NCBI GenBank assembly: GCA_965371445.1
Contig: CBDUYN010000022.1
Coordinates: forward strand, 19,482-83,481
Origin: an uncultured bacterium
Lineage (GTDB): Bacteria > Acidobacteriota > Thermoanaerobaculia > Multivoradales > J023
Reading direction: 5' to 3'
DNA length: 64,000 nt
Positions 1,523-43,060 of the stretch are shown one piece after another. Positions within the stretch are counted from its first letter, which is position 1; each line of letters starts with the position of its first letter. A program made the translations under genes and the position numbers. The notes beneath the pieces were generated by a model. That model ran no database searches and was not told the DNA's origin. It was given only the letters and a program-made list of their open reading frames with translations.

Positions 1523-2593
1523 ATGAGCGAGATCGCGATCGGGAAACGGCAGGTTGGACGGAGGTGGGCGGCGCCGATCCTGGCCCTCACCCTGGGGGCG
1601 TTCCTCCTCTCCTGCGCCGCAGAAGCCCCCCCTGCCCCCACCGCGGAAGCCGCTGCTTCGGAAACCGCCGACACCGGCACGCCCCTGGAGTACCAGGAAT
1701 TTGAAACCGCGCCGCCCGGAGGGAGCTACAACCAGAGGGCGAACCTCGTCCAACGCGGCCACCGGGTCTACCGCAAGTACTGCATCGGCTGCCACGGCGA
1801 GTACGGCAACGGCCAGGGACCGGCCGCGAAACGCCTCATCACCCAGCCGCGTGACTTCACGAAGGGCATCTACAAGTTCCGCTCCACCGATTCCGGCAGC
1901 CTGCCGCTCGAAGAGGACCTCTACCGCACCATCACCCGCGGCCTCTCGCGGGTCTCCATGCCGGCTTTTCCGCTGATGCCCGAGAACGAGAAGCTCGCCC
2001 TGATCGAGTACCTGAAGACTTTTTACCCCCGCTGGGAAGACGAGAAAGACGACCGCCGCGTCGTGCCGATCCCCCGCGCCCCCGAGGACATCGGCTCCGA
2101 GGAGCGGATGATGCGGGGACGCGTCGTCTATCTCGGCATGCAGTGCCTCAAATGCCACGGCACCGACGGCCGCGGCACCGGCGCCACCCAGAAGGAGTAC
2201 GTCGACTCCTGGGGCCACCCGCAGAAGGCTTTCGACTTCACCCGCGGGTCGCTCAAGGGAGGCAACGCCCCCGAGGACATCTACCGCACCTTCCACACCG
2301 GGCTGCGCTCGATCATGCCGTCCTTCGGCGGCGACACCCTCTCGGCGGTCACCGCCGACACGATCCCGGGGTTCGCCGAACAGGCCGGCCTGAGCGGCGA
2401 GATGGCCCGGCTCGAGCCCTACCTCGCCGAGTTCCCGGCCGACGGCGACGCCCTTTACTCTGCGATGAGCGAATCCGAAAGGCTCGAGCTCGCCGCACGC
2501 AACAGCTGGGACCTGGTGGCCTACATCCTTTCCCTGCGCACCACCGTCAACACCGCACCGGCTGTCTTGGGCAGCAGGTTGGCGGACGGCTAG
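1523..2593 (+). CDS. Diheme c-type cytochrome lipoprotein (CcoP-like), upstream of ccoN
   Basis: Two CxxCH haem-binding motifs (CIGCHGEY and CLKCHGTDG). N-terminal signal peptide with lipobox (LLSCAA). 356 aa. Confidence 0.8.
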   Translation: MSEIAIGKRQVGRRWAAPILALTLGAFLLSCAAEAPPAPTAEAAASETADTGTPLEYQEFETAPPGGSYNQRANLVQRGHRVYRKYCIGCHGEYGNGQGPAAKRLITQPRDFTKGIYKFRSTDSGSLPLEEDLYRTITRGLSRVSMPAFPLMPENEKLALIEYLKTFYPRWEDEKDDRRVVPIPRAPEDIGSEERMMRGRVVYLGMQCLKCHGTDGRGTGATQKEYVDSWGHPQKAFDFTRGSLKGGNAPEDIYRTFHTGLRSIMPSFGGDTLSAVTADTIPGFAEQAGLSGEMARLEPYLAEFPADGDALYSAMSESERLELAARNSWDLVAYILSLRTTVNTAPAVLGSRLADG

Positions 2594-2609
2594 AGGAGCT
2601 GCTGAGTCG

Positions 2610-4067
2610 ATGAGCGAACCCACCCAAACCGAAGCCCACACGGAGGGCGCCGCCGAGAGGAGCGCGCCGGCGACGTCGCTGGTCAACTACGGCGTCGTCA
2701 AATGGCACGTCATCGCCGGTGTCTTCTGGCTCTCGATCGCGCTCGTAGCGGGGCTGCTCTACTCGCTCCAACTCCTCCAGTACTGGCCGCTGCCCAAGAT
2801 CGCCGTCCTCTCGCCGGGCAGGATCCGGTTCATCCACACCAACATGATCGCCTTCGGGTTCCTGACCAACTCGTTCCTGGCGATGCTCTACTGGACCGTG
2901 CCGCGCCTGACCGGCAAACGCGTCGCCTCGAAGACCCTCGGTTGGGTGATCCTCGTGGCCTGGAACGCCATCATGGCCTTGACCTACGTGGGCCTTCACC
3001 TCGGCGAAGCGCAGGCGGTCGAGTGGGGCGAGACCCCCGTCTGGGTCGATCCCTTGGTCGTCGTCGGCGCGGTCCTCATCTGGATCCAGTTCTATCCGCC
3101 GATCATCCGGACGGCGGAAAAAGCGCTCTACGTCTCTTTGTGGTACTTCTCAGCCGGTTTCGTCTGGCTCGGCCTGACTTACATCATGGGGAACTTCTTC
3201 CCGCAGTACCTGGTCGCCGGCAACGCCGCGGGACCGCTTCTCGGGCTTTACATTCACGACCTCGTGGGCCTCTGGGTGACGCCCATGGGCTGGGGCATGA
3301 TGTACTTTTTCGTGCCGATCATCTTGAAAAAGCCCATCTGGTCGCACGCGCTTTCGCTCGTCGGCTTCTGGGGGCTCGCCTTTTTTTACCCGCTCCAGGG
3401 CGTTCACCACTTCCTGGGCTCGCCGATCCCGATGTTCGCCCAGTACTCGGCAATCGTCTCGACGATCGCGATCGAGATCGTGGTGACGACGGTCATCATC
3501 AACTTCTTCATGACCTGGAAAGGCAGCGACGCCTCGCTTCGGACCTCGATTCCGCTCCGCTGGTTCTGGGTCGGAGCGCTCGCCTACACGATCACCTGCT
3601 TCCAGTGCGCGTTTCAGGTGACCCTGACGTTCCAGCAGGTGATCCACTTCACCGACTGGGTCGTAGGGCACGCCCACCTGGTCATGTTCGGAGTCTTTAC
3701 CTTCTGGATCTTCGGCATGGTCGAGCACCTGTGGCCAAAGCTCGTCGGCCAGGAATGGTGGAGCGAGGGGCTAAGGCGTTGGGCTTTCTGGCTGATCGCC
3801 CTGGGCCTCGGCTCGATGTTCCTGGCCCTGACCGCGGGCGGGCTCATCGAAGGCTTCATGTCGATGAACCTCGTGCCGCGCGAGACCATTCTCCAGACCA
3901 TGCGCCCGTTCTGGATCGTGCGCTCCATAACCGGGGTCATGATCATCACCGGGTTTACCTGTTTGGTGGTCAACATGATCGCCACGGCAAGAGCCCGGGT
4001 CGCCGCACACGTCGACACCGAATACGCTGCCTACGAAAAGGAGGAGGTGGCCGTTGGAACGGTTTAG
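2610..4067 (+). CDS. ccoN: cbb3-type cytochrome c oxidase subunit I (CcoN, haem-copper oxidase C-family)
   Basis: 485-aa polytopic membrane protein with about 12 predicted helices and conserved His ligand pairs (GVHHFLG, VVGHAHLVMFG). ccoO follows immediately. Confidence 0.88.
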   Translation: MSEPTQTEAHTEGAAERSAPATSLVNYGVVKWHVIAGVFWLSIALVAGLLYSLQLLQYWPLPKIAVLSPGRIRFIHTNMIAFGFLTNSFLAMLYWTVPRLTGKRVASKTLGWVILVAWNAIMALTYVGLHLGEAQAVEWGETPVWVDPLVVVGAVLIWIQFYPPIIRTAEKALYVSLWYFSAGFVWLGLTYIMGNFFPQYLVAGNAAGPLLGLYIHDLVGLWVTPMGWGMMYFFVPIILKKPIWSHALSLVGFWGLAFFYPLQGVHHFLGSPIPMFAQYSAIVSTIAIEIVVTTVIINFFMTWKGSDASLRTSIPLRWFWVGALAYTITCFQCAFQVTLTFQQVIHFTDWVVGHAHLVMFGVFTFWIFGMVEHLWPKLVGQEWWSEGLRRWAFWLIALGLGSMFLALTAGGLIEGFMSMNLVPRETILQTMRPFWIVRSITGVMIITGFTCLVVNMIATARARVAAHVDTEYAAYEKEEVAVGTV

Positions 4068-4818
4068 CTTCATCTTCCTGGTTGCCGGGCTCTTTTTCTT
4101 CGCCCTGGCTTTCGTGGTCAGCGGCTATTTCCCGATGATTCCCGTCCAGCACCTGGAGGTGCGGACGTTGGAGCAGCTGGCCGCGGTGCAGCCGCTCGAA
4201 TTCCTCGAGCTTCAGGAACAGTATCCCGAGGCCTATGAGAAGGCCTTCGGCGGCATGAGCGACGCCGAGGCTTTCGCGGAAGCGCTCAAGGTCGGGCACA
4301 AGACCTACGTCGGCGAAGGCTGCTGGCATTGCCATAGCCAGCAGATCCGTCCCTGGGGCAACGACGAGGCGCGCTACGGCCGCAGGAGCTACCCCGAGGA
4401 GTACCACAACGAGCTCAACATGCCGCCGCTCTGGGGCACCCGGCGGATCGGTCCCGACTTGATCCGCCGCGGCGGCAAACAATCCAACGACTGGCACGTC
4501 GCCCACTTCTACCACCCGCCCGACGTCAACCCCATGAGCGTCATGCCCTCCTACCCGTGGTTTCTTGAGAACGACGGCCTGACCCCAAACAAAACGGGGC
4601 TTTCGATCATCTCCTACGTCCAGTGGCTCGGCAGCTGGGAGCCGACGATCCGCGAAACCGTCTACGAGATCCCCTACATCGAGGCGAGCTATCCGCCCTC
4701 CGACGTCGCGGTTCCCGTTTCGCCCGAGGCCGCGGCCCCAAAAGGCGAGGAAGACATCTGGGGCGAGGACGCTGGAGAAGGCGAGGAAGAAAGCGACTTC
4801 TGGGACGAGGAGCAGTAG
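4054..4818 (+). CDS. ccoO: cbb3-type cytochrome c oxidase subunit II (CcoO, monohaem)
   Basis: N-terminal TM helix plus the YVGEGCWHCHSQQIRP motif, which matches the CcoO GCxxCHSQ(M)VR signature. TTG start at 4054 with RBS AAGGAGGAGG 8 nt upstream. Overlaps ccoN by 14 nt. Confidence 0.88.
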   Translation: MERFSFIFLVAGLFFFALAFVVSGYFPMIPVQHLEVRTLEQLAAVQPLEFLELQEQYPEAYEKAFGGMSDAEAFAEALKVGHKTYVGEGCWHCHSQQIRPWGNDEARYGRRSYPEEYHNELNMPPLWGTRRIGPDLIRRGGKQSNDWHVAHFYHPPDVNPMSVMPSYPWFLENDGLTPNKTGLSIISYVQWLGSWEPTIRETVYEIPYIEASYPPSDVAVPVSPEAAAPKGEEDIWGEDAGEGEEESDFWDEEQ

Positions 4819-5323: not shown

Positions 5324-7402
5324 GTGTCCACGGACGCCGGCAGCTCCGGGGCTTGCCTCCACTGCGCTCTGCCGATCCCCCCGAGTCGGCGCCGCGGCGA
5401 AGCCCCCGGCTTCTGCTGCTTCGGTTGCCGCTTCGCCTACGAGGTCGCGCAGCCGTCGGCACGCGGCGAGGAAGGCGGAACACCCTCGACGCTCCTCCTG
5501 CGCCTCGGCCTCGGCATCTTCCTGGCCTTAAACATCATGGTTGCGAGCTGGCTCGGCTACTCGCAGGAGGTCTTCGGTGACGCCGCCCGCGCCGAAGGCG
5601 CCTACACGGCCCTTACCGGGCTCTTCAGCTACCTCGCCTTTTTCCTCTGCACGGTCGTCATCGCCCTCCTCGGCTTGAACCTCCTCGCCGACGCGCTCTT
5701 AAACCTCGCCCGGGGCCGGGTCGAGACCCAGCTCCTGATCGCCGTTGGCGTCTTCTCCGCCTACGGCCTTTCCGCCGTCAACACCTTTCGCGGCGAGGGC
5801 AGCCTCTACTTCGACACCGCCGCCATGGTGCTGGTCGTCGTCACCCTCGGCAGCTACCTCGAAGCGGGGGCCCGGCAGCGCGCGGCGTCCTCGGCGAGCG
5901 CGCTGCTGACGGACCTCCCCAGCCGGGTGCTCGTCGAACGCCGGGGCGAGCTCGTCGAAGCAGCGACGGAGGAGCTCGGCAAGGGCGACGTCGTGGTCGT
6001 GCGTCCCGGCGAGACGGTACCGGCCGACGGACGCCTCGTCGCGGGGACGGGCCACGTCGACGAAGCGAGCCTGACGGGCGAGTCGCGCCCGCGCCCGGTC
6101 GAGCCCGGCGATCCGCTCCTTGCCGGCACGGTCAGCCTCGACGGCCAGCTGCGCATGGAGGCCGAGCAGGTCGGCGAGGACCGGGTGCTGGCGCTCGTCG
6201 AACGTTCCCTCGCCGCGGCTCGGGCACAGAAACCGCCGATCCAGCGCCTGGCCGACCGCGTCGCCGCCGTCTTCGTGCCGGGCGTCGTCCTCCTGGCGCT
6301 CGCGGTCTTCGGCTACCGGGCGTTGCAAGGCGAGGCCGCGGCCGGCATGCTCCAGGGGCTCGCGGTGCTCCTCATCAGCTGCCCCTGTGCCCTCGGCCTG
6401 GCGGCGCCGCTCGCCTCCTGGCACGCGCTCCGCCGGGCCGCGGAATACGGCATCCTGATCGACTCCCCCGCCACCTTGGAACGCGCGGCGGCGGTCCGGC
6501 AAGTCTTTTTCGACAAGACCGGCACCTTGACGCGTCCCGAGCTCGACCTCGAACGGGCGACGGCGGCGCCCGGCGTCGATTCGCGGGAAGCCCTGGCGTG
6601 GGCCGCGAGCCTCGAAGCCGCGTCGACCCACCCGATCGCCCGCGCGCTCGTCGCCCACGCGGCGGAGCACGGCATCGTGCCAGAGGCCCTCGACGAGGCG
6701 TCAAACGTCCCGGGCCTGGGCGTCGAGGGACGCCTCGGGGGACAATGGCTCCGCCTGGGCAGCGTCCGCTGGGCCGAGCGCCTGGGTCTTGACATCAGCG
6801 CCCTGGCGGACGACGCGGACGACGACGCCAGCAAGGTCGTCCTGATGGACGATCACCGTCCGTTGGCGCGTTTCGACCTCAAGGAAGCGCCGCGTCCCGA
6901 GGCGGAGGCGGTGATCGCGGAGCTTCGGCGTACGGGAATTGACGTGGCGGTCCTAAGCGGCGACCGCGCAGGGGCGACGGCACGGCTCGCGGCACGGCTC
7001 GGTGTGACGGCGACCGGCGACCTCTTGCCCGGCGAGAAGGTCGAACGCCTCGTCGCCGCGCGCGGCGAAGGACGCCTGGCGATGGTCGGCGACGGCCTGA
7101 ACGACGCGCCGGTCCTGGCCGCCGCCGACGTCGGCATCGCCTTGGGCTCGGCGAGCGATCTCGCCAAGCGCTCCGGCAACGTGCGGCTCGTCGCCGACCG
7201 GCTCGACCGCGTCCCGCTTCTCTTCGCCCTCGCCCGCGACGCGCGGCGGCGGATCCGCTGGAACCTCGCCTGGGCCTTCGGCTTCAACACGGTCGGGATA
7301 GCGCTCGCCGTCGCCGGGACGCTGACGCCGATCTTCGCGGCGGTCGCGATGGTCCTCTCCAGCCTCATGGTGGTGCGGATCTCGAGCCGCGCCGGGGCCT
7401 GA
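5324..7402 (+). CDS. ccoI: Copper-translocating P1B-type ATPase (CcoI/FixI)
   Basis: GTG start. Motifs: N-terminal Cys-rich region (CLHCALP...CCFGC), CPC metal-transduction motif (SCPCALGLA), DKTGTLT phosphorylation site and GDGLNDAPVL hinge. 692 aa. Confidence 0.9.
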   Translation: MSTDAGSSGACLHCALPIPPSRRRGEAPGFCCFGCRFAYEVAQPSARGEEGGTPSTLLLRLGLGIFLALNIMVASWLGYSQEVFGDAARAEGAYTALTGLFSYLAFFLCTVVIALLGLNLLADALLNLARGRVETQLLIAVGVFSAYGLSAVNTFRGEGSLYFDTAAMVLVVVTLGSYLEAGARQRAASSASALLTDLPSRVLVERRGELVEAATEELGKGDVVVVRPGETVPADGRLVAGTGHVDEASLTGESRPRPVEPGDPLLAGTVSLDGQLRMEAEQVGEDRVLALVERSLAAARAQKPPIQRLADRVAAVFVPGVVLLALAVFGYRALQGEAAAGMLQGLAVLLISCPCALGLAAPLASWHALRRAAEYGILIDSPATLERAAAVRQVFFDKTGTLTRPELDLERATAAPGVDSREALAWAASLEAASTHPIARALVAHAAEHGIVPEALDEASNVPGLGVEGRLGGQWLRLGSVRWAERLGLDISALADDADDDASKVVLMDDHRPLARFDLKEAPRPEAEAVIAELRRTGIDVAVLSGDRAGATARLAARLGVTATGDLLPGEKVERLVAARGEGRLAMVGDGLNDAPVLAAADVGIALGSASDLAKRSGNVRLVADRLDRVPLLFALARDARRRIRWNLAWAFGFNTVGIALAVAGTLTPIFAAVAMVLSSLMVVRISSRAGA

Positions 7403-8034: not shown

Positions 8035-8335
8035 TCTCGTCCAGGGGCCACCTGTTCAATGCGCGTCGAGGTACGCGTCGATCCTCTCAGCGGGAGCCTC
8101 CCCGGCGTTCGACGCCGCCGCGGGGATCACCGCGGCAAGGAGGAGAATACGGGTTTCGGTCTTCAAGGCAGGATGAATCATGGTCACGCTCCGAGGCTTC
8201 GTCGTTTTGCAGGTCCCTACGCGAAGCCCCCTCCGAAGGTTTCGCGGTGTTGGGAGTCCAGCCCTTGCCCTGACGGCAAATGTTCTGTTAACATTCTCGC
8301 TCTGCTCACATCGTCCCGACCAGGAGGTTCGAGAG

Positions 8336-10228
8336 ATGCCGAACACCGTCTTGCGCCTATCCCGTGGATCCGCCTTGATCGCTGGAGCCGTGCTGGCCAT
8401 GCTGCCACCAGCCCAAGCCGACGTCACCCTCGAGACCCTGGCCACCGGGCTCGACCTTCCGGTGGCGGTGACGCACGCCGGCGACGGCCGGCTCTTCATC
8501 TCCCAGCTGCGAGGACAGGTGCTCGTCCTCCAGGACGGCGAGATCCTCCCCGAGCCCTTTCTCGACGTCACCAGCCGGGTCCTCGGCACGGGGCACGGCC
8601 TGCTCAACCTCGCCTTCCATCCCAACTACGCGGAGAACGGCTTCGTCTACGCCCACCTGGGCGAGAAGGGGACCGCCGACTCGATCGTCGTGCGCTACCG
8701 CGTCTCGGCCGACGACCCCGGCCGCGTCGACCTGGAGAGCGAGGTCGTCTTGTTGCGGATCGTCAAGGAGATCCGGCGTCACTACGGAGGGCAGCTGCGC
8801 TTCGGCCCCGACGGCTACCTCTACGTCTCGACCGGCGACGGCAGCGGACGCGACCCGGACACCCGCGAGGACCTGATCGACCCCGAGTGCGCCTCCCAGG
8901 ACGTCGGCCGTCTGGAGGGCAAGCTCCTGCGCCTCGACGTCGACCGCAACGTCGACGTGGCGCCGTACTACGCCGTCCCCGACGACAACCCCTTTCGGGG
9001 CTCCGGCCTGGGCGAGGTCTGGGCGACGGGCCTGCGCAACCCCTGGCGGTTCTCGTTCGACCGCGAGACGGGCGACCTGTGGATCAGCGACGTGGGCCAG
9101 GACGACCGGGAGGAAGTCAACCTGCAACCGGCCGGCTCGCCCGGCGGCGAGAACTACGGCTGGAAGATCATGGAGGGGACCGACTGCTTCGGCGACACGA
9201 CAGGTTGCCGGGGCAGTGTCCCGGTCTGCCACGCCGCGACGATCACGCGGCCCGTCCTGGAGTACTCGTACCGCTCCGGCTGCTCGGTGACCGGGGGGTT
9301 CGTCTACCGCGGCAGCCTCGTCCCGGAGCTCTACGGCCGCTACGTCTACGGCGACTACTGCCAGGGGACGATTTGGGCAGCCGAAGAGGTCGACGGCGCC
9401 TGGCAGACCGAGGAGCTCCTCCCGCGTCTGCCCTGGGTCGTGTCCATCGACGAGGAGGCTTCCGGAGAGCTCCTGCTGAGCGACCACCTCGGGGGCGCGG
9501 TGTATCGGCTCGTCGATCCGACGCTTCCCGAAGCGGGCCTCGTCGAGCTTGAGGCGACGAGGTGGGAGGCCGTGGAAAGCGACGGCGAGGTGCTCCTCGG
9601 CGTCCGGCGGCTGGGCGAGGCAGTGGGTGAGGTGAGCGTCCAGGTTCTCCTCCGGCCCGGAACGGCCAGGGCGGGCACCGACTACATGGCTCTGCCGGCC
9701 ATCCTGAGCTGGAGCGACGGCGAAACGGGGACGAAGCCCTTTCCCGTCAAGCTGCTCGACGACACGGAGGACGAGCCCCTGGAGACAGCGACGGTGGAGC
9801 TCGTCGCGCTGCCGGGCGATGCGATCCTCGGGGCGCGTTCCCGGGCGACGCTCGCCGTCGCCGACGACGACGAGCCGACCTGCGTCGCCAACTTCCGGCA
9901 CCTTTGCCTCAACAAGGGACGCTTCCGCGTCTCCGCCAATTGGCGGACCGCGGACCGAACGGGCCTGGGCTACGCCGTGCCACAGGACGAGAACGACGGC
10001 TCCTTCTGGTTTTTCGGCTCCAAGAACCCGGAGCTCTTCGTCAAGGTTCTCGACGCCTGCTTCGACCCCTTCCGTCACTACTGGGTCTTCGCCGCCGGCT
10101 TGACCGACGTCGAAGTGAGCCTGCGGGTCGTCGACACCCGGACCGGCGCTCTGAAGACGTACGACAGCCCGCTCGGCAAGACCTTCGAGACGATCACGGA
10201 CACGCGGGCTTTTGCCACGTGTCCTTGA
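8336..10228 (+). CDS. Secreted PQQ-dependent soluble sugar (aldose/sorbosone) dehydrogenase beta-propeller, with Calx-beta-like domain and a ~110-aa C-terminal domain shared with the BNR protein at 23056-25325
   Basis: ATG at 8336 with a signal peptide (MPNTVLRLSRGSALIAGAVLAMLPPAQA). YliI/sorbosone-dehydrogenase-like propeller motifs (LDLPVAVTHAGDGRLFISQLRGQV, GGQLRFGPDGYLYVSTGDG, LRNPWRFSFD, CHAATITRPVLEY). A Calx-beta-like segment (GTDYMALPAILSWSDGETGTKPFPVKLLDDTEDEPLETATVEL). C-terminal domain C..FRV..NWR..FWFFG..NPELFVKVLDAC...FWVFAA.TDVE..LRV.DT..G..K.Y..PLG....TDT.AFATC. Confidence 0.8.
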   Translation: MPNTVLRLSRGSALIAGAVLAMLPPAQADVTLETLATGLDLPVAVTHAGDGRLFISQLRGQVLVLQDGEILPEPFLDVTSRVLGTGHGLLNLAFHPNYAENGFVYAHLGEKGTADSIVVRYRVSADDPGRVDLESEVVLLRIVKEIRRHYGGQLRFGPDGYLYVSTGDGSGRDPDTREDLIDPECASQDVGRLEGKLLRLDVDRNVDVAPYYAVPDDNPFRGSGLGEVWATGLRNPWRFSFDRETGDLWISDVGQDDREEVNLQPAGSPGGENYGWKIMEGTDCFGDTTGCRGSVPVCHAATITRPVLEYSYRSGCSVTGGFVYRGSLVPELYGRYVYGDYCQGTIWAAEEVDGAWQTEELLPRLPWVVSIDEEASGELLLSDHLGGAVYRLVDPTLPEAGLVELEATRWEAVESDGEVLLGVRRLGEAVGEVSVQVLLRPGTARAGTDYMALPAILSWSDGETGTKPFPVKLLDDTEDEPLETATVELVALPGDAILGARSRATLAVADDDEPTCVANFRHLCLNKGRFRVSANWRTADRTGLGYAVPQDENDGSFWFFGSKNPELFVKVLDACFDPFRHYWVFAAGLTDVEVSLRVVDTRTGALKTYDSPLGKTFETITDTRAFATCP

Positions 10229-10322
10229 CCTGAAAAGCGGCGCCAGGGCCTTATACTGTGGCCATGCGAATCGTCTTCCTGCCTCGAGCCGTTTCCTCGC
10301 CTCCAACGCGGAAAACCCCGGC

Positions 10323-11024
10323 ATGACGACCGGCGCGCTTTTCGGCTCCCTCTTCCTGGCCGGGCTGGCTGGCAGCCTCCACTGCGTCGGCATGTGCGGA
10401 CCGATCCTGCTCGGCTTCTCCCAGAGCCTCAAAAGCGGCAGCCGGCTCGACTTCCTCGTCTACCACGCCGGACGGTTGTGGACCTACGGCCTCCTCGGCT
10501 TCCTGGTCGGCTGGGCGGGCTGGGAGCTGCGCATCGGGACCGACGCCCTCGTCGGCCAGCGCGGCTTCGCGGTCTTCGCGAGCGTGCTGGTGATCCTCGC
10601 CGGGGTCGCGTCCTCGGGGCTGGTGCCGGGGCTGCGGCTCAAGCTCGACATGGGGGGCTGCGGCTTCCAGGCGGCCCGCGAGCGCCGCTGGCTCATGGTC
10701 CTCCTCAAGGAACCTCGGCTCGCCGCGCGGCTCCTCCTCGGTGCCGTCATGGGTTTCTTGCCCTGCGGCCTGGTCTACGCCGTCCTGGTGATGGCAGCCA
10801 CCCTGCCGACGCCGCTCCACAGCGCGCTCGCGATGCTCTGCTTCGGCCTCGGGACGCTGCCGGCGCTCTCGGCGCTCGTCCTCGGCGCGCACCTCATCCC
10901 GGCCAGGCTGCGAGCTCACAGCACGCGGCTCGTCGCGGCGCTTCTCGTCGGCACGGGTGTCTTTATGTTGGCCCGGGCACTCCTGACGATGCCGGGACAC
11001 GAGCACGGCCACATGATGCCGTAG
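10323..11024 (+). CDS. DsbD_2/TauE-like membrane protein with HCVGMCGP motif (cytochrome-oxidase/metal-maturation-associated family)
   Basis: Six hydrophobic helices. Cys motifs LHCVGMCGPIL and FLPCGLVY. His-rich C-terminus (MPGHEHGHMMP). A start at MTTGALFGSLFLAGLAG is preferred over the upstream ORF start. Confidence 0.65.
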   Translation: MTTGALFGSLFLAGLAGSLHCVGMCGPILLGFSQSLKSGSRLDFLVYHAGRLWTYGLLGFLVGWAGWELRIGTDALVGQRGFAVFASVLVILAGVASSGLVPGLRLKLDMGGCGFQAARERRWLMVLLKEPRLAARLLLGAVMGFLPCGLVYAVLVMAATLPTPLHSALAMLCFGLGTLPALSALVLGAHLIPARLRAHSTRLVAALLVGTGVFMLARALLTMPGHEHGHMMP

Positions 11025-11700: not shown

Positions 11701-14700
11701 TCAAGGCCCGGCGCTTACGAGCTCGGCGTGGCCGATGGTCAACTCAAGCTGTCTCAGAGCCTTGGTCATCCCCTCGACTTCCCGCCGGTAGCTCTGCGCG
11801 AGCTTCAGCGGCTCCCCCGGAAGATCCGGCACGTACCGACGGATGGACGCGGCCAAGGCAGCGTCAACATCCTGCGGCTTCTGCAAGGCACGTGTTAGTT
11901 CCTGGACGTTGTTACCGATTCCGAGGGTGTCGAGAAAATGCTCTTTGACGCGCTGGTCTCGCTTGCGTTCGAGATACATTCTCGCCAACCTCTCCGCTCG
12001 CTTCGCCGGTGCCGACAAGGTGCTTACGTGCCTGGTGATCGCTCCGGCGAGATCCTCGGCGTCCCGTCGAGAAAGCGAAGAGATGTGTCGGGTCATGAGC
12101 GTGGCCAACACCTCGGCGGCATGGGGTTCGTCGCTCTGTAACGACCTGGCCAGACCCCAGACCGCCACTCCGAGATTCTTGGCCAGGTCTTTCCGAACCT
12201 TGGGAGCGAGGACGCTCTCCAGATAGACCTTAGCTGGATCACTTCCCGGCTTCGCCGTGCCTGAAAGCGCCGCGACTCGTCGGGCGATCACCTTGGCCAA
12301 AATCCTGCCCGCGCGCTTCCAGAGCTTCTTTTCCCTGAACACAGCGTCAACACTCATTGCGGCGGGAGTTTTCAACTCTTGCAACAAGGACTCCCAAATC
12401 TTTCCGTCCTCGTCGGCAAGGATCGCCTGCTCCTCAGCCGCCAAGCGGCCATTCCCGCTCGAGATGCCGGGAATCGGGTTGGCGAAGAGAACCTCGAGAA
12501 GGTCGACGCGGCGTTCCTCGTCGTAGTCGAAGGCCTCCGAATAAAGAAGGACGTTCTCGAGGTCGTCTTCGGAGAGAAGCTCGGCGAAGAGCCCTTTGAG
12601 CCGCTGCAGCGCCAGCCTCCGGCCACCGGGCTCGCCGAAGTCGAAGGGATTGTGGCCCGTCGGATTGAAAGCGTGGACCAGGATCTCGTAATCTCTGATC
12701 TCGGGAGGTTCCGGAGGTTCTTCCGTAACCGCTCCCGCCTTTTTCTTCGCTCCAGCCTCGGCCTTCTTCGCCGTGAGGAGCTCACTTCGGTGATCGACGG
12801 CTTTCTGGAAGTCGTCGCGAAACCTGCTGCAAAACTCCTTGAACGTCATCCCCTTTGGCAGAACGCCGATCCGGCTCTGGCGTGTGTAGAGCTTGAAATT
12901 GTATTTGTATTTCAGCGAATCCGCAACTCTTCCTCCCCGCGCATCGGCGGGATCAACGAGGATCTCGATCCCTGCTTCCTTGAGAGCGTGTCTCACCCTG
13001 CCCTCCTTGGCGGGGAGGCAATCGAGCAGAGTCTGGACCGGACCCGTTCCGGCTCGGACGGTGAGAACATAAGGCGTCATGGCGTGGGTTTCAAGAAAGC
13101 GTTCGATCGTCTCTAGCTCCAACCGTAGGAAGAGTTTCTTGAGGAGTGGCTTACATCCTGGTGGCCGGGGCCTGGTCACCATGGGTCCCAGGCTCGTAGT
13201 CGGGACGGTTGGCACGGCGGCCGGTTGCACTGGCGGTGGGTGCGGCCTCGCGTCCGCGCTGTCGGCAGCGTGCTCTACCGTGGACCCGAGGCCGAAAGCC
13301 TGCCACATCAAATCTTTCTTGTTGTTCAGCCAAACCCCTTTGGCAAGATGATCCTGCAAGGTATCCAACTCTTGGCCGAAGCCGCCCGGCCTCATTCCAC
13401 GCTCTTCCACCAAGTCCCGCCATTGCGGCAGGAACTCGTCGAGGCGTAGGAACTCCCAGGTGCTGGCCCAGTTGCCGCTACGAAAGTCCTGCTTGGCTTC
13501 GAGGTAAGCCCAGGCCATGAGGATGCCGATCGGCTTGTGAATCGTCCCGATCGGGTACTGGGCCTCCCTCGCCGCCAGGACCCTACAGACTCTCTTTCGG
13601 ATCGCCTGGTGTGTAAGCGTTCGAGTGAAATACAAGATGATGGAGATCAAGCTGAAGCTCATGATTTCGTCCTCGAAGAACTCCTTCGCCATGACCCCGC
13701 CGACTGCCTCCTGAACCCAGCTAGCGATCGACAGCTCACCTGCTTCGACAAGGACGTCCGTCGGCTCGTCGAGCTTGTAGAAGCCCTCCGACCCTTGTGG
13801 CAGGCTGCCTCGCCGCTGGATCACGTCGAGGATCCTGGCCGTCTTGAATCGGAAAGGCTCAGGCTTGAGGCCGTGGCTCTTGAGGAAGGAAAGGTAGGAG
13901 TCGACGAGCCGGCGAAGCTCGTTCACCTTTCTCAGCTCCACAGCGAGGTCCTCGAGCTTGAAGCCTTCCAGCGCGGCCAGTAACCGCGCGAGCTCACCGG
14001 GTTCGACGTGTTCCGTGGGTAACCGCCCGCTGCGAACCAGGACATTGGCCAGCGCGTTCAAGGTTTGTTCGTCGCCCTTTGGCCAGACGGGCTCGAAGAT
14101 CCTCCCTCCGCGCTCGTGGTAAAGCACGACGAGCACTTGACACGAAATGTCCAGCTCGACGGCCAAGGCCCGCGCACAGCACTCCACGGGGTCGGTCGGA
14201 TCCTCCTCCAAGAGGAGGTTTGTCAGGTCGATGCGCCGAGCGGCGCTCAGCGTGGCCTCGGCGTAGACCTCAACCGTGCCTGCCATTCGGTCGACCACGC
14301 CGCAGCTCGCCGCGATCCTGGCGTTGAGGGCGGCCAGGAACGCCTCGAACTGAAAGCTCTCAAGCTGCTTCAGGAGCTTCAGGAGGAGATTCACCGACGC
14401 ATCGTCGTCCGCCCTGAAGTAGTCTTGGGGAAATCTACCAGTCCCCAGAAGCAGGCCGGCCAACTTGCGAAGGACCTCTTCCTCGGTTCGCGGCCAGTGG
14501 GGTAGGGAGATCCCTCCCTTGCGCTCACGGTAGAGGACTTTGAGCACCTGATGCGAGACGTCGAGCTCGCGGGCAAGCTCCTCCGCGCAGGCTTCGGGGA
14601 GCCCCTCGGGCTTTGTCGATACGAGCTTGCGCGTCAGCTCCCTCTTCCGCGGCTCGTCGAGGCTTCCCAGGCCGTAGGTCTCGATGACGATCTGAAAACC

Positions 14701-15441
14701 GTCAACGACCTTTCGGGCCCTCTCAAGCTCATCCTCAATCTGCTCGACGAGAGTTTGGATCTTAAACATCCTGGCCGACGTCAACAGCCGCTCGACGAGC
14801 CCGATTCCCTCGATCGCAAGCTCGCCCGCGAAGTATTTCCTAAAAGACCTTCCGAGCTTGCCACTCCGGACCAAGACCTCGGCCAGAACCTTCTTCGCCT
14901 CTGGACCCTCCTTGAAAATGGACGCCCCTCCGTCCCTCTCCCGCTCCTCGTAGAGAATGGAAATCACTTTCCCGAGCCGACGAAGCCGATTTCCGTCGGC
15001 CGGACTGGAGATGATCAGACTCTCCTGTACGAGGCTCTTTGCATAAGACCTGAGGGGATCATCCTCTTGCGCCGACTCCTTGCTGAGCCTCGCTGAATAC
15101 TTGATGGGAAACTTGACACCGTAGTAATCGAGAGCGCTCTCCAACGTCTTCGCCATGTTGACGTAGAGTTTCTTGCGCTTCTGCCTTTCGAGCCAAGCGC
15201 TGCCGCCAGGTATGAAATCGATCAGTATCGGAATGAAATTCGCAAACCATTTCACATGACTCGACAGATACAGCGCCAGGATTCCTAAGACGCAGGTCAG
15301 GTAGGGCGCCAGCTCGGACTTTCCCCATTCCTTGAGGTATACCGGCCCAAGATAGAGTGCCACGAACAGCAGGAAGGCTGCCGCCACGAGGCAGGTCGAG
15401 GCCTTCAGGACACCTTGAAACTTCAGGACAGCAGTATTCAT
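11701..15441 (-). CDS. Large (1246 aa) hypothetical membrane-anchored protein with an internal ~60-aa repeat. GC (~57%) is lower than the flanks, so it is likely horizontally acquired.
   Basis: N-terminal TM helices (LVAAAFLLFVALYLGPVYL, LTCVLGILALYLSSHV). Internal duplicated motif LPEACAEELARELDVSHQVLKVLYRERKGGISLPHWP vs PVECCARALAVELDISCQVLVVLYHERGGRIFEPVWP. No recognisable catalytic motif. Terminator-like hairpin ccgggccttcaaggcccgg at the stop. Confidence 0.7.
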   Translation of the reverse strand: MNTAVLKFQGVLKASTCLVAAAFLLFVALYLGPVYLKEWGKSELAPYLTCVLGILALYLSSHVKWFANFIPILIDFIPGGSAWLERQKRKKLYVNMAKTLESALDYYGVKFPIKYSARLSKESAQEDDPLRSYAKSLVQESLIISSPADGNRLRRLGKVISILYEERERDGGASIFKEGPEAKKVLAEVLVRSGKLGRSFRKYFAGELAIEGIGLVERLLTSARMFKIQTLVEQIEDELERARKVVDGFQIVIETYGLGSLDEPRKRELTRKLVSTKPEGLPEACAEELARELDVSHQVLKVLYRERKGGISLPHWPRTEEEVLRKLAGLLLGTGRFPQDYFRADDDASVNLLLKLLKQLESFQFEAFLAALNARIAASCGVVDRMAGTVEVYAEATLSAARRIDLTNLLLEEDPTDPVECCARALAVELDISCQVLVVLYHERGGRIFEPVWPKGDEQTLNALANVLVRSGRLPTEHVEPGELARLLAALEGFKLEDLAVELRKVNELRRLVDSYLSFLKSHGLKPEPFRFKTARILDVIQRRGSLPQGSEGFYKLDEPTDVLVEAGELSIASWVQEAVGGVMAKEFFEDEIMSFSLISIILYFTRTLTHQAIRKRVCRVLAAREAQYPIGTIHKPIGILMAWAYLEAKQDFRSGNWASTWEFLRLDEFLPQWRDLVEERGMRPGGFGQELDTLQDHLAKGVWLNNKKDLMWQAFGLGSTVEHAADSADARPHPPPVQPAAVPTVPTTSLGPMVTRPRPPGCKPLLKKLFLRLELETIERFLETHAMTPYVLTVRAGTGPVQTLLDCLPAKEGRVRHALKEAGIEILVDPADARGGRVADSLKYKYNFKLYTRQSRIGVLPKGMTFKEFCSRFRDDFQKAVDHRSELLTAKKAEAGAKKKAGAVTEEPPEPPEIRDYEILVHAFNPTGHNPFDFGEPGGRRLALQRLKGLFAELLSEDDLENVLLYSEAFDYDEERRVDLLEVLFANPIPGISSGNGRLAAEEQAILADEDGKIWESLLQELKTPAAMSVDAVFREKKLWKRAGRILAKVIARRVAALSGTAKPGSDPAKVYLESVLAPKVRKDLAKNLGVAVWGLARSLQSDEPHAAEVLATLMTRHISSLSRRDAEDLAGAITRHVSTLSAPAKRAERLARMYLERKRDQRVKEHFLDTLGIGNNVQELTRALQKPQDVDAALAASIRRYVPDLPGEPLKLAQSYRREVEGMTKALRQLELTIGHAELVSAGP

Positions 15442-21038: not shown

Positions 21039-22634
21039 GTGAGAAGTCGAAGCGAAGCGAGGTTTCAGAATCCGTTGGACGTAGTTTCGGCGGCGGTTCT
21101 GCTGCTCGTCCTGACATCTTGCGGCGGTGGGGAGCCGGCCGCCGAGGCGCCGGCCGCACCCGGTGCCGCCCAGGCGGCGGAAATCGATATCGCAGGCCTC
21201 AACGGGCCGCGCGGAATCCGGGTCAACCAACCGGAGGCGCAATCCGGCTACACGTTGTTCGCACCGATCCTCTCGGATACTACCTATCTGATCGACAACG
21301 CGGGGCAGGTCGTGCATGCCTGGAAAGCGGTTTTCGCGCCAGGGGGTGGCATCTACCTGCTTGAGAACGGCAACCTCTTGCGCCCGGCGCGCGAGCCCGA
21401 AGTCAAGAGGTTCTCCGGCGGTGGCCAGGGCGGCAGGATCCAGGAGCTCACCTGGGACGGCGAGGTGGTGTGGGACTTCCTGTTTGCCAGCGACGAGCAC
21501 CTGCAGCATCACGACGTCGAGGTTCTGCCGAACGGCAATGTCCTGGCCATCGCCTGGGAGCACAAGAGCGCCGACGAAGTCCGCCGGGCCGGCCGATTTC
21601 CGACCAAAGTGCCGGCGGCCGGCCTGTGGCCGGACCTGGTGGTCGAGATCGAGCCCCAGCGGCCGAACGGCGGACGGATCGTCTGGGAGTGGCACGCCTG
21701 GGACCACCTCGTGCAGAACCACAACAAGAGGTTGCCCAGCTACGCCGAGCCCTCGGAGAGGCCGGGCCGAATCGACATCAACGCGGGCCTCCCTCCGGAG
21801 ACGAGCCCGGAAGAGCTCGAGAAGTTGAAGGCCCTCGGGTACGTCTCTTCCGACACGACGCAAGAGGACCTCCGATCCGACCTCTTTCACACCAACTCGG
21901 TCGATTACAACGCCGAGCTCGACCAGATCGTCCTCAGCGTACCGCGTTACAACGAGATCTGGATCATCGATCACAGCACCACCACCGAGGAAGCCGCGGG
22001 CAGCAGCGGGGGCCGCTGGGGACGGGGAGGCGATCTGTTGTATCGCTGGGGGAATCCGGCCGCCTACGGCCGCGGCGACGAGAGCTCCCAACGTTTGTTC
22101 TCCCAACACGACGTGCGCTGGATTCCCGACGGGCGTCCGGGAGCCGGCAACTTGACGGTGTTCAGCAACCGCATGGGCGATGACTCGGGGCGGTTCTCGG
22201 CGGTCTACGAGATCGTGCCGCCGGTGGCAACCGACGGGCGCTACCTCGTCCCTCAGGAAGGCCCTTTCGGCCCGGCGGAACCGGTCTGGTCGTACCGGGG
22301 AACCGGTGAGAGATTCTTCTACGCCCCGTTCGTTTCAGGCGCCGAGCGCCAGCCCAACGGCAACACGCTCATCTGCTCCGGGGCCCAGGGTCGCTTCTTC
22401 GAAGTCACACCCGACGGTGAGATCGTCTGGGAGTTCTGGGACCCGAGGCAGGGCCAGGTCCGCCTGCCGGACGGCTCGCCGCCCCAACCGGTGAACGAGT
22501 TCACCCACGCCGTGTTTCGCGTCACCAGAATCTTGCCGAACCACCCGGCTCTACGCGGCCGCGAGCTGCAGCCACTCGACCCGCAGCCACCCATCGAGGT
22601 TGCGTACGAGGGCGCCGACGGATCTTCGGGGTAG
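21039..22634 (+). CDS. Arylsulfotransferase (ASST) family beta-propeller lipoprotein
   Basis: Signal and lipobox LLLVLTSCGGG. ASST-like motifs (LLENGNLL, VLPNGNVLAIAWEHK, NSVDYNAELDQIVLSVPRYNEIWIIDHSTT, QPNGNTLICSGAQGRFFEVTPDGEIVWEF). Confidence 0.75.
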   Translation: MRSRSEARFQNPLDVVSAAVLLLVLTSCGGGEPAAEAPAAPGAAQAAEIDIAGLNGPRGIRVNQPEAQSGYTLFAPILSDTTYLIDNAGQVVHAWKAVFAPGGGIYLLENGNLLRPAREPEVKRFSGGGQGGRIQELTWDGEVVWDFLFASDEHLQHHDVEVLPNGNVLAIAWEHKSADEVRRAGRFPTKVPAAGLWPDLVVEIEPQRPNGGRIVWEWHAWDHLVQNHNKRLPSYAEPSERPGRIDINAGLPPETSPEELEKLKALGYVSSDTTQEDLRSDLFHTNSVDYNAELDQIVLSVPRYNEIWIIDHSTTTEEAAGSSGGRWGRGGDLLYRWGNPAAYGRGDESSQRLFSQHDVRWIPDGRPGAGNLTVFSNRMGDDSGRFSAVYEIVPPVATDGRYLVPQEGPFGPAEPVWSYRGTGERFFYAPFVSGAERQPNGNTLICSGAQGRFFEVTPDGEIVWEFWDPRQGQVRLPDGSPPQPVNEFTHAVFRVTRILPNHPALRGRELQPLDPQPPIEVAYEGADGSSG

Positions 22635-22923
22635 TCGCGGAAGGCGACAGGAGAGAGACCAAGCATCGCCATACCGTCGGCTGGCTGAGTGCTTCTACGG
22701 CCTCGGCCAGGAAGATCTGCGTCCAGCCCTGTGCTATCTCGTCATTTTAGCCTGCCAACGGCCCATTGAACGCCGCCAGAAGGGACATCATGACCAAACC
22801 TCGCTCAATCTCGTCGCTTGGTCGGTCGCCACGCTCGTGGAGCCCGCTTCCGCAGCACGCAGAGCGGTTCTCCGTACGCCAAACCGGTCGTAAACCGCTG
22901 AAAACAAAGGACTTCTAAACGGG

Positions 22924-22985
22924 TGGCACCTCAGGAGGGGCACCTCGGACTTGTGAAACACTTGGCACCTCAAGAGGGGCACCTC
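22924..22985. promoter_or_regulatory. Direct repeat of a 23-bp element (TGGCACCTCAGGAGGGGCACCTC / TGGCACCTCAAGAGGGGCACCTC, one mismatch) upstream of the BNR-propeller gene; candidate operator
   Basis: GGCACCTC occurs four times within 62 bp (at 22925, 22939, 22964 and 22978). Confidence 0.4.
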
Positions 22986-23055
22986 AAGAGGGCCTCGCGG
23001 TTGCGAAGCTCGCTCCTGTTTGCATTCCCATACGATTTTGTGTATGATAGCATCG

Positions 23056-25325
23056 TGCGACGAATCGTCCTCGACATCAACGTCTTGACCGCGACGCTGG
23101 CTTGCCTTGCCGTCTGGCTTGCCACCGCCGCGACTGCCAGCGTCCACGAGTGGAAGCCCTTCGCCCCCACCGTCGCCCACGTCCACGACCTGGCGATCGA
23201 TCCACAAGGTCCCTGGAAGGTCTACGCCACGACCCCGGACGGGTTGCTCCTGACCAACGACGGCGGGGCGACCTGGAGCCGCACCGAAGAGGCCGGCATC
23301 CCCTTTAGAGAGAACGATCGCTTCGTCGTGGCGATCGATCCTCAGGACCCCTTGACCGTCTACGCCGTCACCTCCTGCGAGCTCTCGAAGAGCGTCGATG
23401 GCGGCCACTCCTGGAGCCGCATCCCGTTGGCCGACTTCGAGACCTGCGCCATCACCGATCTCACGATCGACCCCCAGCGCCCCACCACCCTCTATGCCAC
23501 GAACGATTACGGCGGCACAGGGCGACACGCCGAAGGCACGATCCAGAAGAGCGAGGACGCAGGCACCGTCTGGACGGACATCAGCGACGGGATCTGGGCC
23601 GCGGCCTTCTACGCTGTCGTGGTCGATCCGAGCCAGTCCTCCACCCTCTACGCCGGCACCTCGGCCGGCGTGTGGAAGAGCGTCGACGGCGGCGCGTCCT
23701 GGAGCGAAGCCCGGACAGGCTTACCCCGCCGGGGGAGCGTGTTCGCCCTGGCGATCGATTCCCGCCGTCCGTCGACTCTCTACGCGGGGAGCGACGACGG
23801 CGTCTACAAGAGCAGCGACGGCGGGCTTTCCTGGGAGAGCTCCCCCCAGGCCGAATTGGGCGCGCCGGTCGACCTCCTGCGGATCGCCCCCGACGATCCC
23901 GACGTCGTTTATGCCGGCACCCGCACCCGGGGAATCCACAAGAGCCGCGACGGCGGGCACACTTGGACAGCGATCACGCGCCGCGCGGGCCGCCGCCGGG
24001 TGAAGGCCCTGGCGCTTCATCCCCGCGATCCCGCGATCGTCTATGCCGGCAACCACGGGGCCGGGATGCTCAAGAGCCTCGACGGCGGCGACAGCTGGCG
24101 AGTCGTCGAGACCGGGACCAGGCGCCGTGCCACACTTCTCGCCCTGGCGATCGGGCAGCGTTTCGCCACCACCTTCTACGCCGGGACCCGCAACGCCGGA
24201 GTCTTCAAGAGTGACGACGAGGGACGCACCTGGTACCCCGCAAGCCTCGGCCTTGAAGCCGACGAGGTCACCGTGCTGACGATCGACCTCGGCCGGCCCG
24301 CGATCGTCTACGCCGGCACTTACGGTGACGGTGTGTGGCACTCTCAAAACGGCGGCCGCTCCTGGAGCCCCTCTTCCCGGGGTCTGCGAAGGGCCGAGAT
24401 CGTCGCTCTGGTGATCGATCCCGACGTGCCCGACTCCGTCTACGCAGCGACCGACCGGGGCCTCTACATAAGCGCCAACGGTGGGAGATCCTGGTCGCGA
24501 AAAGCATTCCCCGAAGAGTGGGTGTGGGCGTTCGCGATCTCTCCGCACAGATCGTCGATCCTCTATGCCAGCACCTACGAGGACCTCTACAGGAGCACGG
24601 ATCGGGGCCGCACCTGGCAGAGGATCGGGCACGACAGCCTGCCCGACAGTGGCATCCACGCTGTGGCGCCCGATCCGCGTCGGCCCGGTGTCGTCTACGC
24701 CGGCACCCTTGAGGGTGTCTACAAGAGCGTCGACGAGGGCCGCACCTGGATTCACGCCTGCGAGGCGTGCCGTGCCATCTACCAGGTAATCGTCGATCCC
24801 CGGTCTCCGTCGCGCGTCTACGCCCGGGGCTACGACACGATCTTCGAGAGCCTCGATGGTGGCGGATCCTGGAGCGGCTTCGAGGGCCGGCCGGGAAACT
24901 CTGCGCGAACCCTGGTGCTTCATCCCTGGAGTCCGTCCACCATCTACCAGGGGGGGGACCAGCTGAGCCGTCCCCGTTGCGGCGAGACGGCCCTCTGCTT
25001 CCACCAGGAGCGTTTCACGGTCGAGGTGGTGTGGCGCGACGGCCGCGGCGGCACGGGCCTGGGCCGGCCGGCGCCAGCCTGGTCGCACGACTCGGGCGTC
25101 CTTTGGTTTTTCGACGAGGAAAACTGGGAGATGCTCGTCAAGGTGCTCGACGGCTGCGGCATCAACGACCGTTTCTGGGTCTTCGCCGCGGCGAGCACCG
25201 ACGTCGAGTACGGTCTGCGCGTCACCGACACGCTGAGCGGCTACGTGAAAAGCTATTTCAATCCCCTGGGCCGCGCTGCCGCCGCCCTGACCGACACTGC
25301 CGCTTTCGCCACCTGCTCACGATAA
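23056..25325 (+). CDS. Secreted BNR/Asp-box repeat beta-propeller protein (at least 13 S/DxDxGxTW repeats) carrying the same ~110-aa C-terminal domain as the sugar dehydrogenase
   Basis: Repeats DGGATWSR, DGGHSWSR, DAGTVWTD, DGGASWSE, DGGLSWES, DGGHTWTA, DGGDSWRV, DEGRTWYP, NGGRSWSP, NGGRSWSR, DRGRTWQR, DEGRTWIH, DGGGSWSG. C-terminus ...CFHQERFTVEVVWRDGRGGTGLGRPAPAWSHDSGVLWFFDEENWEMLVKVLDGCGINDRFWVFAAASTDVEYGLRVTDTLSGYVKSYFNPLGRAAAALTDTAAFATCSR. The start is uncertain: GTG at 23056 (VRRIVLDINVLTATLACLAVWLATAATA signal peptide) is preferred over the track ATG at 22923. Confidence 0.7.
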
Positions 25326-35100: not shown

Positions 35101-35312
35101 CGGAGTATCATGACAAGGTCTTCGGCCTCTTCGAGCGGCTCGACACGCAAACCGAAGGCACGGGCATCGGCCTCGCCATCGTCAAACGGATCGTCGAGTT
35201 CCACGGCGGCCGCATTTGGGTCGAGTCCGAGGGGCTGAGACGTGGCAGCACCTTTTGTTTTACACTTCCCTGCAAATGCGCACCTACGTCGCGTCCACCT
35301 CTGGAGACTTGA
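32175..35312 (+). CDS. Sensor histidine kinase with periplasmic two-component-regulator propeller (Reg_prop) and Y_Y_Y domains, a TM helix, HisKA and HATPase_c
   Basis: Repeated DG.LW.GT..GL..F/L propeller motifs. Y_Y_Y-like TFRYRLVEHDPDWVEVGARRTAYYTKVPPGTYRFEV. TM helix ILWFQISAALAAVGLIVLGFTV. H-box FTYTVSHDLKAPL and ATPase motifs DNGVGI, GTGIGLAIV. Start may be 32217 (MISSRP...). The 3' end overlaps the next gene by 47 nt. Confidence 0.85.
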   Translation: MFDRGVASAGSRKEMISSRPKRKPWHRSAGAGLLAALLWTAPGRAIDPEKSLDQLVHKSWTTADGLPQNAVLDIVQTCDGYLWLATFGGLARFDGQKFTVFDVAASPGLRSNRITALHEDADGVLWLGSERGFVCRREDERFDCLGVADGLPRGVVWSLLEDLDGALWIATSNGLARLAEGRIRTFSESDGLRGATEALVLDRQDNLWVGTAGGLARWRGDRFELRQIPSLFGHATPHAAVADPRGDLWVTMHHGVLKLHDGEMQVIVEPPPSGMSFGDILHDRDGNLWFTNHGVGRFRAGSLVDDGERLLQDGRLEVRVLYEDGEGNIWIGTSSHGLHLLRDGIFSSHLHPMGSAGGGILESASGEVVFGTFCQGVHLLAGKDMSRIDRPESGLGCVNSLLEDRRGRLWAGGGVLGLREGNSWTRFTATDGAFVRSPVRALFEDRRGVVWVGADQGLASFADGRFTPYTSSDGLKIDDVRLITEDSRGNLWLAGPYGLMRFAGAEIAPRSARHFTVSDGLPHNFVRAVYEDASGGLWIGTYGGGMAYLDPDGDVFTTLTRAHGLPENAVSSIVEDDAGNFWMSGNRGITRLRRAEAEAFVRGETDRVHAVLYDEVDGMIPSETSGGFQPAAWKARDGRIWYPTIRGVAVVDPAKLRLGAPPPVAVERVRVGRREVEARSTVIVPPGDWDLEIEYTGLQLGLPAETRFRYRLVEHDPDWVEVGARRTAYYTKVPPGTYRFEVTAAAYAGGPWNEGPATFDIVFRPFLYQILWFQISAALAAVGLIVLGFTVHIRGLRRHARELASTIAELEAKNAEMERFTYTVSHDLKAPLVTIQGFSGMLRKDARAGNPKRVDDDIERIQAAGAQMGRLLDDLLELSRIGRLMSTPQEVPLSEVAREARELVTGRLGSVEVEIAGDLPTVLGDRPRLVEVFQNLFENAARFMGDEVEPRIVVGHRRDAEETVVYVRDNGVGIAPEYHDKVFGLFERLDTQTEGTGIGLAIVKRIVEFHGGRIWVESEGLRRGSTFCFTLPCKCAPTSRPPLET

Positions 35313-42900: not shown

Positions 42901-43060
42901 TCAATACCTTCCTCGACGGTACCGAGTATATCCGTCCGCCGGCGCCTGGGAGGTCGCCATCTCCGCCCTTGCACATTTTTCCGCGGACATCGCGGAGGTG
43001 GTTGAGGGCGGAAATGAAAGCCGCCCCAGCCCACGAGAACCAACGGTACGGAGGTCAACC

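Follow-up and report, generated by a model that had tools for sequence, protein, structure and literature searches.

Two secreted proteins of unrelated kinds, a pyrroloquinoline quinone (PQQ)-type sugar dehydrogenase and a BNR-repeat beta-propeller protein, end in one and the same domain in a 64,000-nucleotide stretch (66.8% GC; hereafter the window) of contig CBDUYN010000022.1, from an uncultured bacterium of the Thermoanaerobaculia (Acidobacteriota). This tail domain of about 115 residues represents a new and real domain family, lineage-restricted and uncurated, and is best placed among the accessory modules that serve secreted multidomain proteins in localisation or binding. It is independently folding, extracytoplasmic, non-catalytic and highly mobile. 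As to its function, we favour, with a probability of roughly 0.5, an autonomous binding or retention module that would recognise one common ligand. The two copies and their host proteins lie in the window as follows.

8336-10228, plus strand: gene of a secreted PQQ-type glucose/sorbosone dehydrogenase (GSDH) of 630 residues, with GSDH, Calx-beta and tail domains (PF07995, E 1.8e-39; PF03160, E 7.5e-13).
9533-9871, plus strand: Calx-beta domain directly upstream of the tail, residues 452-564 of the 682-residue open reading frame (ORF) (PF03160, profile positions 5-119 of 119).
9881-10225, plus strand: tail copy 1, 115 residues, subfamily 'B', four cysteines (BLASTP and tblastn match to copy 2, profile match, AlphaFold2 model).
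22923-25325, plus strand: 800-residue ORF of a secreted BNR/Asp-box (Sortilin-Vps10-like) beta-propeller protein with a tail (PF15902, E 5.6e-37; PF14870; PF02012).
24978-25322, plus strand: tail copy 2, 115 residues, subfamily 'A', four cysteines (BLASTP and tblastn, profile match, AlphaFold2 model).

The two tails align colinearly, with 46 of 95 residues identical in BLASTP (48%, E 1e-24) and 49.5% identity across 109 residues in tblastn (E 1.2e-25). On the strength of these E values, their similarity is far above that expected from chance or composition. The sequence-only reading of this stretch, which had proposed a colinear C-terminal domain shared by two unrelated secreted enzymes, was right in substance and in coordinates, its figure of about 40% identity being slightly low against the 48-50% found. 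The family profile hidden Markov model (HMM) sets the boundaries at 9881-10225 and about 24975-25319, essentially those first proposed, and matches both tails from end to end, with four cysteines and the near-invariant residues present in each. A tblastn search of all six frames of the window returned these two copies in total and no third; the arylsulfotransferase and the other window genes, secreted ones included, thus lack the domain, as had been anticipated.

Both host ORFs have coding-type statistics of codon usage and of GC content at third codon positions (GC3), and both open with a hydrophobic N-terminal stretch. The dehydrogenase ORF spans 8180-10228 (+) and 682 residues; we place the true start at 8336, which gives 630 residues, because a database protein of that length (P0259) shows 100% identity starting at MPNTVLRL.... 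Its Sec-type signal peptide reads MPNTVLRLSRGSALIAGAVLAMLPPAQA, and the BNR protein, for which the start codon is uncertain, has the signal-peptide-like segment LTATLACLAVWLATAATA. Each of the two recognisable subfamilies has one copy in the window, the 'NWEM...AAATTNVEY' form on the BNR protein and the 'NPE...AGGLT[ND]VEV' form on the dehydrogenase. Copy 1 is marked by NPE..VKVLDAC, by FWVFAAGLTDVEV and by the terminus ATCP, and copy 2 by NWEMLVKVLDGC, FWVFAAASTDVEY and the terminus ATCSR; the latter copy has 108 homologues, with identities of up to 67%.

Neither tail matches any Pfam-A or NCBIfam model, even at E<=10. When 57 short and 66 long family members were scanned against the same two collections, many partner domains were found, none of them covering the tail domain, together with scattered weak noise (for example DUF6778 in 3 of the 57, at E 0.03). 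Precomputed entries from a newer Pfam version were blank or gave partner domains only among the 228 homologues listed. A side observation concerns the two-domain member P0392, which alone has a precomputed match to PF27099.1, an accession that is not in our local Pfam copy and that probably covers the partner region. The family profile matched no sequence of the PDB (best E 0.066, to an unrelated protein), and Foldseek comparisons of both predicted structures with the PDB, and of one with BFVD, gave nothing at E<=0.001, with template-modelling scores of 0.40 or less. Our literature search returned no relevant published description of such a C-terminal domain in Thermoanaerobaculia or other Acidobacteriota.

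Several identities could thus be set aside by name, in line with the proposal that the tail resembles no PEP-CTERM, LPXTG, Calx-beta or type 9 secretion system (T9SS) C-terminal domain (CTD). Calx-beta is rejected, since PF03160 is limited to residues 452-564 of the dehydrogenase ORF and the tail, from residue 568, is without a match; the two are separate domains, as had been supposed. A T9SS CTD is rejected too, for no match to TIGR04183/Por_Secre_tail or to a Pfam T9SS CTD model was seen in the two tails at E<=10 or in the 57 and 66 members. A known carbohydrate-binding module (CBM) is likewise rejected at the level of sequence and fold, by the lack of any match to Pfam CBMs, to PDB sequences by profile or to solved structures by Foldseek.

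AlphaFold2, run with family alignments, predicts for both tails a compact all-beta structure with the same strand order, at a mean predicted local distance difference test score (pLDDT) of 96.6 in each. Copy 1 has 10 strands (predicted template-modelling score 0.88), and copy 2 has 9 strands and one short helix (0.89). The suggestion of a beta-sandwich had been offered as a structural check, and the all-beta nature at least is borne out by these models. The fold itself is probably new.

The consensus, cysteine patterns and conservation were drawn from 491 non-redundant copies. The family consensus, C.......CL...RF.VEV.WRDF.G.TG.G.VVP..S.DSGLFWFF...NWEMLVKVLDGC..N..FWVFAAATTNVEYTL.VTDT.TG....Y.NPLG.AA.AITDT.AFATC, agrees with the string first written down from the two window copies, and may be shortened to C-x7-CL-x3-RF...FWFF-x3-N-x-E-x3-KVLDGC...FWVFA...VTDT...Y-x-N-x2-G...DT-x-AF-x1-2-C. 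All four cysteines are present in 388 copies; 22 lack the first two (--CC), 11 lack the last two (CC--), and mixed losses are very few. Such pairwise loss points to disulfides between Cys1 and Cys2 and between Cys3 and Cys4. Cys1-Cys2 would close a short loop near the N-terminus, and Cys3 (VKVLDGC) would bond with the C-terminal Cys4 (..ATC). The four-cysteine pattern is appropriate to a periplasmic or extracellular domain. About ten polar residues are near-invariant (R14, N51, E53, K57, D60, N65, T76, D86, N97 and D108 in HMM numbering), and that they are conserved in paralogues whose catalytic parts are unrelated would suit a single ligand or site common to all. The alignment bears the mark of strong purifying selection over the whole length of the domain. 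With about 115 residues, the consensus, four cysteines and an all-beta prediction, both window tails have the features that define the family.

The recurrence and lineage-specificity that had been foreseen from two copies hold on a large scale. Among 1.84 billion proteins, each representing a cluster at 50% identity, the profile retrieved 10,710 at E<=1e-3, of which 6,668 remained at E<=1e-30. Their named sources are entries called 'hypothetical protein' from Thermoanaerobaculia, Holophagales, Acidobacteriota or unclassified metagenome-assembled genomes (MAGs). A scan of the GTDB species representatives gave at least 588 pattern matches, and tblastn confirmed at least 569. Of these at least 588 matches, the best 80 came nearly throughout from MAGs of Acidobacteriota, Ca. 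Multivoraceae and Ca. Sulfomarinibacter among them, and several MAGs contributed 7-9 loci each, so paralogues are many per genome. The named sources are thus almost all acidobacterial MAGs, chiefly of Thermoanaerobaculia and also of Holophagales. We studied 79 loci (L001-L079, with 10 kb on either side), which hold 154 domain copies in 99 ORFs. One example is a region of the MAG 'Bpl_12' (L020, 5640-18173), where six adjacent genes, three on each strand, all terminate in the domain, with 11 copies in 18 kb.

The architecture of the family was read from the 150 best-scoring proteins. Copies per protein range overall from one to four; in this sample two copies were found in 146 proteins, three in 1 and four in 3. 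The last copy lies within 15 residues of the C-terminus in 122 of the 150, 75 of the 150 have 'CP' as their very last residues, and 92 of the 99 ORFs of the genome loci end within 10 residues of their last copy. The C-terminal position is nevertheless not obligatory. In 16 of the 150 (for example P0117, P0125, P0131 and P0135) a pair of copies directly follows the signal peptide, with the other domains downstream, and in 6 of the 150 the domain is internal. With every one of the 150 proteins multi-copy, this is not the single, always-last domain of T9SS cargo. Stand-alone proteins also exist, with signal peptide, linker and domain as their only parts (for example P0006, P0016, P0017, P0026 and P0036). 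One such subfamily (P0016, P0017, P0026, P0031 and P0036, the last at L080 8001-8549) has about 170-180 residues and a single copy, in the order signal peptide, motif 'IPKSNVEE[LM]GV[VL]K', linker and domain; the genomic context of P0036 is uninformative, a 69-residue ORF overlapping it upstream. Signal-peptide-like N-termini were seen in 110 of 136 complete proteins, and a C-terminal hydrophobic helix in none of the 150 (Kyte-Doolittle >=2.0 over a 15-mer in the last 30 residues).

In 66 proteins the partner domains belong to no fewer than 56 Pfam families and include fn3, lactonase and BNR propellers, PKD, M12, M23 and M64 peptidases, PA, ricin, LamG and purple acid phosphatase. NCBIfam adds M36 metallopeptidases, closest among its curated models to the forms that depend on myxosortase, T9SS or rhombosortase. 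In other phyla these M36 relatives carry MYXO-CTERM, T9SS or GlyGly-CTERM tails, from which it would follow that the tail domain fills a 'localisation slot'. Tandem copies are 62.5% identical within one protein, against about 55% between proteins, and do not fall into copy-1 and copy-2 subtypes; a heterotypic tandem unit is accordingly rejected, the single domain being the unit to which duplication adds valency.

We favour a binding or retention module because the domain is found on dozens of unrelated hosts per genome, in N-terminal, internal and stand-alone contexts and in tandem copies, its paralogues remaining 50-65% identical. Proteins bearing it would be exported by Sec, after which the disulfides of the tail would form. 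The folded domain would then hold diverse exoenzymes, propellers, lectins and proteases on a single ligand common to all, perhaps a polymer of the cell envelope or matrix, perhaps a shared receptor protein, and tandem duplication would raise the avidity. It would not act as a cleavable, position-dependent sorting signal. In the window, the PQQ sugar dehydrogenase and the BNR propeller protein would be the tethered proteins. Of the uses offered in the sequence-only reading, anchoring or carbohydrate binding is the most plausible. Several points weigh against our preference. The extreme C-terminal preference (92 of 99 ORFs, with half of the best hits ending in 'CP') would suit a secretion or processing signal as well; Foldseek found no structural relative in the PDB or BFVD to back a lectin or CBM; the conserved aromatic runs FWFF and FWVF are probably core strands and not a sugar-stacking platform; and our 150 proteins, being the best-scoring, are biased towards two-copy, consensus-like members.

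The likeliest of the rivals is a sorting function, in which the domain would be the C-terminal secretion signal of a new lineage-specific pathway of export or attachment at the outer membrane, recognised by a translocon in the manner of a T9SS CTD and then cleaved, covalently attached or both. The terminal position of most copies and the Cys-Pro end of half the best hits speak for it, as do the dozens of cargo types with many paralogues per genome, which recall T9SS and PEP-CTERM cargo sets, the size and all-beta nature shared with T9SS CTDs, and the sorting tails of M36 relatives elsewhere. We nonetheless hold it to be unlikely, and an obligate C-terminal sorting signal, sorting having been among the first suggestions, is not supported. 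Copies that directly follow the signal peptide, internal copies and stand-alone forms do not fit it; the best hits generally have their copies in tandem, while one copy would be enough for a signal; TIGR04183 and all other sorting-signal models are without a match at E<=10; no C-terminal transmembrane helix is present; and none of the 79 loci points to a conserved sortase-, PorU- or exosortase-like neighbour. T9SS CTDs are, moreover, typically far less alike than the 50-65% identity seen among these paralogues. That the domain is a CBM or lectin bringing enzymes to an insoluble polysaccharide, and not to the surface of the producer, strikes us as a rather poor prospect. Its modular, position-independent and multi-copy occurrence is typical of CBMs, and an all-beta fold, the many conserved Asp, Asn, Arg, Trp and Tyr residues and the co-occurring ricin, LamG, PKD and fn3 modules also speak for this reading, but most partners are something other than glycoside hydrolases (M12, M23, M36 and M64 metalloproteases, lactonase and BNR propellers, purple acid phosphatase, PQQ dehydrogenase), and CBM models and structures give no match.

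We give still less credence to a purely structural accessory, that is, an aid to folding or stability or a removable pro-domain without a binding partner. The domain is C-terminal on many secreted proteases and has a compact, disulfide-braced fold, and bacterial pre-peptidase C-terminal (PPC) domains, C-terminal on secreted proteases, behave similarly. Many hosts are not proteases, though, and stand-alone secreted forms exist; surface-type polar residues kept across unrelated hosts are hard to explain without a common interaction; and PF04151, the PPC family, is separately present in some of the same proteins. Finally, an artefact of chance, of composition or of shadow ORFs in high-GC DNA can be considered excluded. 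A window of 66.8% GC does abound in long spurious antisense ORFs, and the antisense shadow of the domain does cluster into a false 'family', but the E value of 1e-24 between the tails, the coding-type GC3 of both ORFs, the thousands of homologues and a pLDDT of 96.6 all stand against this. Such shadows, typical of high-GC DNA, lie opposite the domain at 8357-10432 (-) and 24944-25231 (-) in the window and at 3031-4719 (-) in L021.

Within 10 kb of the domain genes, the recurrent neighbours in the 79 loci include no T9SS gene and nothing of the sortase, exosortase, rhombosortase or myxosortase kind that might serve as a dedicated processing enzyme. The second-largest 'family' of neighbours was rejected as the antisense shadow ORF of the domain itself. 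The commonest neighbour is a tetratricopeptide repeat (TPR) protein with a CHAT domain (PF12770, E 7.8e-61), with 26 ORFs in 18 of the 79 loci. Of these ORFs, 11 are less than 1 kb from a domain gene, and farther out there are about 2 per kb. The TPR-CHAT gene mostly stands in an operon with a PF07638 extracytoplasmic function (ECF) sigma factor gene (9 loci); such pairs are found at L001 5156-8437 (-), beside 8573-10336 (+), L028 1675-5041 (-), L022 850-4043 (+), L035 10737-13795 (-) and L077 12373-15541 (-). They resemble DdvS/DdvA of Myxococcus, the only characterised pair of an ECF sigma factor and a TPR-CHAT anti-sigma factor, DdvA-like proteins having been reported only in Myxococcota and in one Comamonas (PMC11506125). 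Those of the Acidobacteriota may form another group, greatly expanded, with control over part of the domain-bearing secretome; the adjacency counts come from the 79 loci. One might speculate that the domain is the 'dockerin' of an acidobacterial system of exoenzyme display, a new beta fold through which dozens of hydrolases, propellers and lectins in each genome would dock on a single cognate receptor, scaffold or envelope polymer at the surface, with the gene set partly under the adjacent ECF sigma/TPR-CHAT pairs, although we regard this fuller scenario as quite improbable.

In the window itself, the stop codon of the dehydrogenase gene lies in a 17-nucleotide overlap with the gene of a DsbD_2-family membrane protein (10212-11024, +; PF13386, E 1.3e-37). 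The dehydrogenase, with its putative disulfides, may be co-transcribed with a membrane protein of thiol redox or cytochrome biogenesis, or the overlap may be a coincidence. On its 5' side are cbb3 oxidase genes (1523-4818), among them the catalytic subunit of the COX1 family (2610-4067), and a P-type ATPase gene (5324-7402). The arylsulfotransferase gene (21039-22634) is near two convergent genes of giant signalling proteins (35216-38434, +, and 38445-42296, -), each with an nSTAND1 NTPase domain followed by a terminal domain like that of the formylglycine-generating enzyme/sulfatase family (PF03781); the former adds a DUF4062 and the latter an N-terminal Ser/Thr kinase. Three other large ORFs, 11701-15441 (-), 42611-44758 (+) and 44755-46578 (+), of 1246, 715 and 607 residues, match nothing in Pfam at E<=1e-3 or 1e-4, and the first, which fails a coding filter on GC3 and second-position GC, may not be a real gene.

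The Thermoanaerobaculia and related Acidobacteriota are abundant degraders, most of them uncultured, that live in marine sediments, sponges and soils. A considerable part of the multidomain proteins that they secrete carries the domain (over 10,000 clusters at 50% identity), and at present such proteins are called 'hypothetical' or named after their catalytic part only. Once the family is defined, annotation and secretome prediction would improve for a phylum-level lineage, and structural study would gain a confidently predicted, probably new fold. The domain could also be used as a bait or tag to learn where and how the enzymes are retained. If it is a module of docking or export, it would reveal a new system of protein localisation in diderm bacteria, and the dockerin-like reading, if true, a new way for such bacteria to organise their extracellular degradative machinery. 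As a finding it ranks with the definition of a new domain of unknown function, here one whose family is unusually large and whose fold is probably new.

Among known systems, it is the T9SS CTD of Bacteroidota (TIGR04183) that the tail domain resembles in position. Both are all-beta domains of about 80-115 residues at the extreme C-terminus of unrelated secreted enzymes, lineage-restricted and with many cargo paralogues per genome. The tail domain differs in having no match to the CTD model and no Foldseek match to solved CTDs, in occurring also in N-terminal, internal, tandem and stand-alone form, and in its four conserved cysteines, its paralogues of 50-65% identity and its acidobacterial hosts. 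The PEP-CTERM/exosortase, LPXTG/sortase, GlyGly-CTERM/rhombosortase and MYXO-CTERM/myxosortase systems occupy the same C-terminal 'slot', for instance on M36 relatives, and MYXO-CTERM shares a conserved cysteine near the C-terminus; these tripartite tails, however, consist of a motif, a transmembrane helix and a basic end, whereas the tail domain is globular, has 115 residues and matches no NCBIfam model. The PPC domain (PF04151), likewise small and of beta structure, stands at the C-terminal end of secreted proteases and is at times repeated in tandem, but it gives no profile match and is present separately in some of the same proteins. In behaviour the tail domain is like anchoring modules of the S-layer homology type, CBMs and dockerins. 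CBMs and lectin-type beta modules are likewise autonomous, non-catalytic, tolerant of position, often tandem, all-beta and joined to diverse catalytic partners; no family or structure match links them to the tail domain, however, and its partners are mostly not carbohydrate-active. The cellulosomal dockerin is also a highly conserved module on dozens of secreted enzymes per genome, mostly C-terminal and occasionally N-terminal or internal, and implies a common partner. Yet it is a calcium-binding, helical, duplicated EF-hand-like module with the cohesin as its partner, whereas no cohesin-like partner was found for the tail domain, which is all-beta with putative disulfides.

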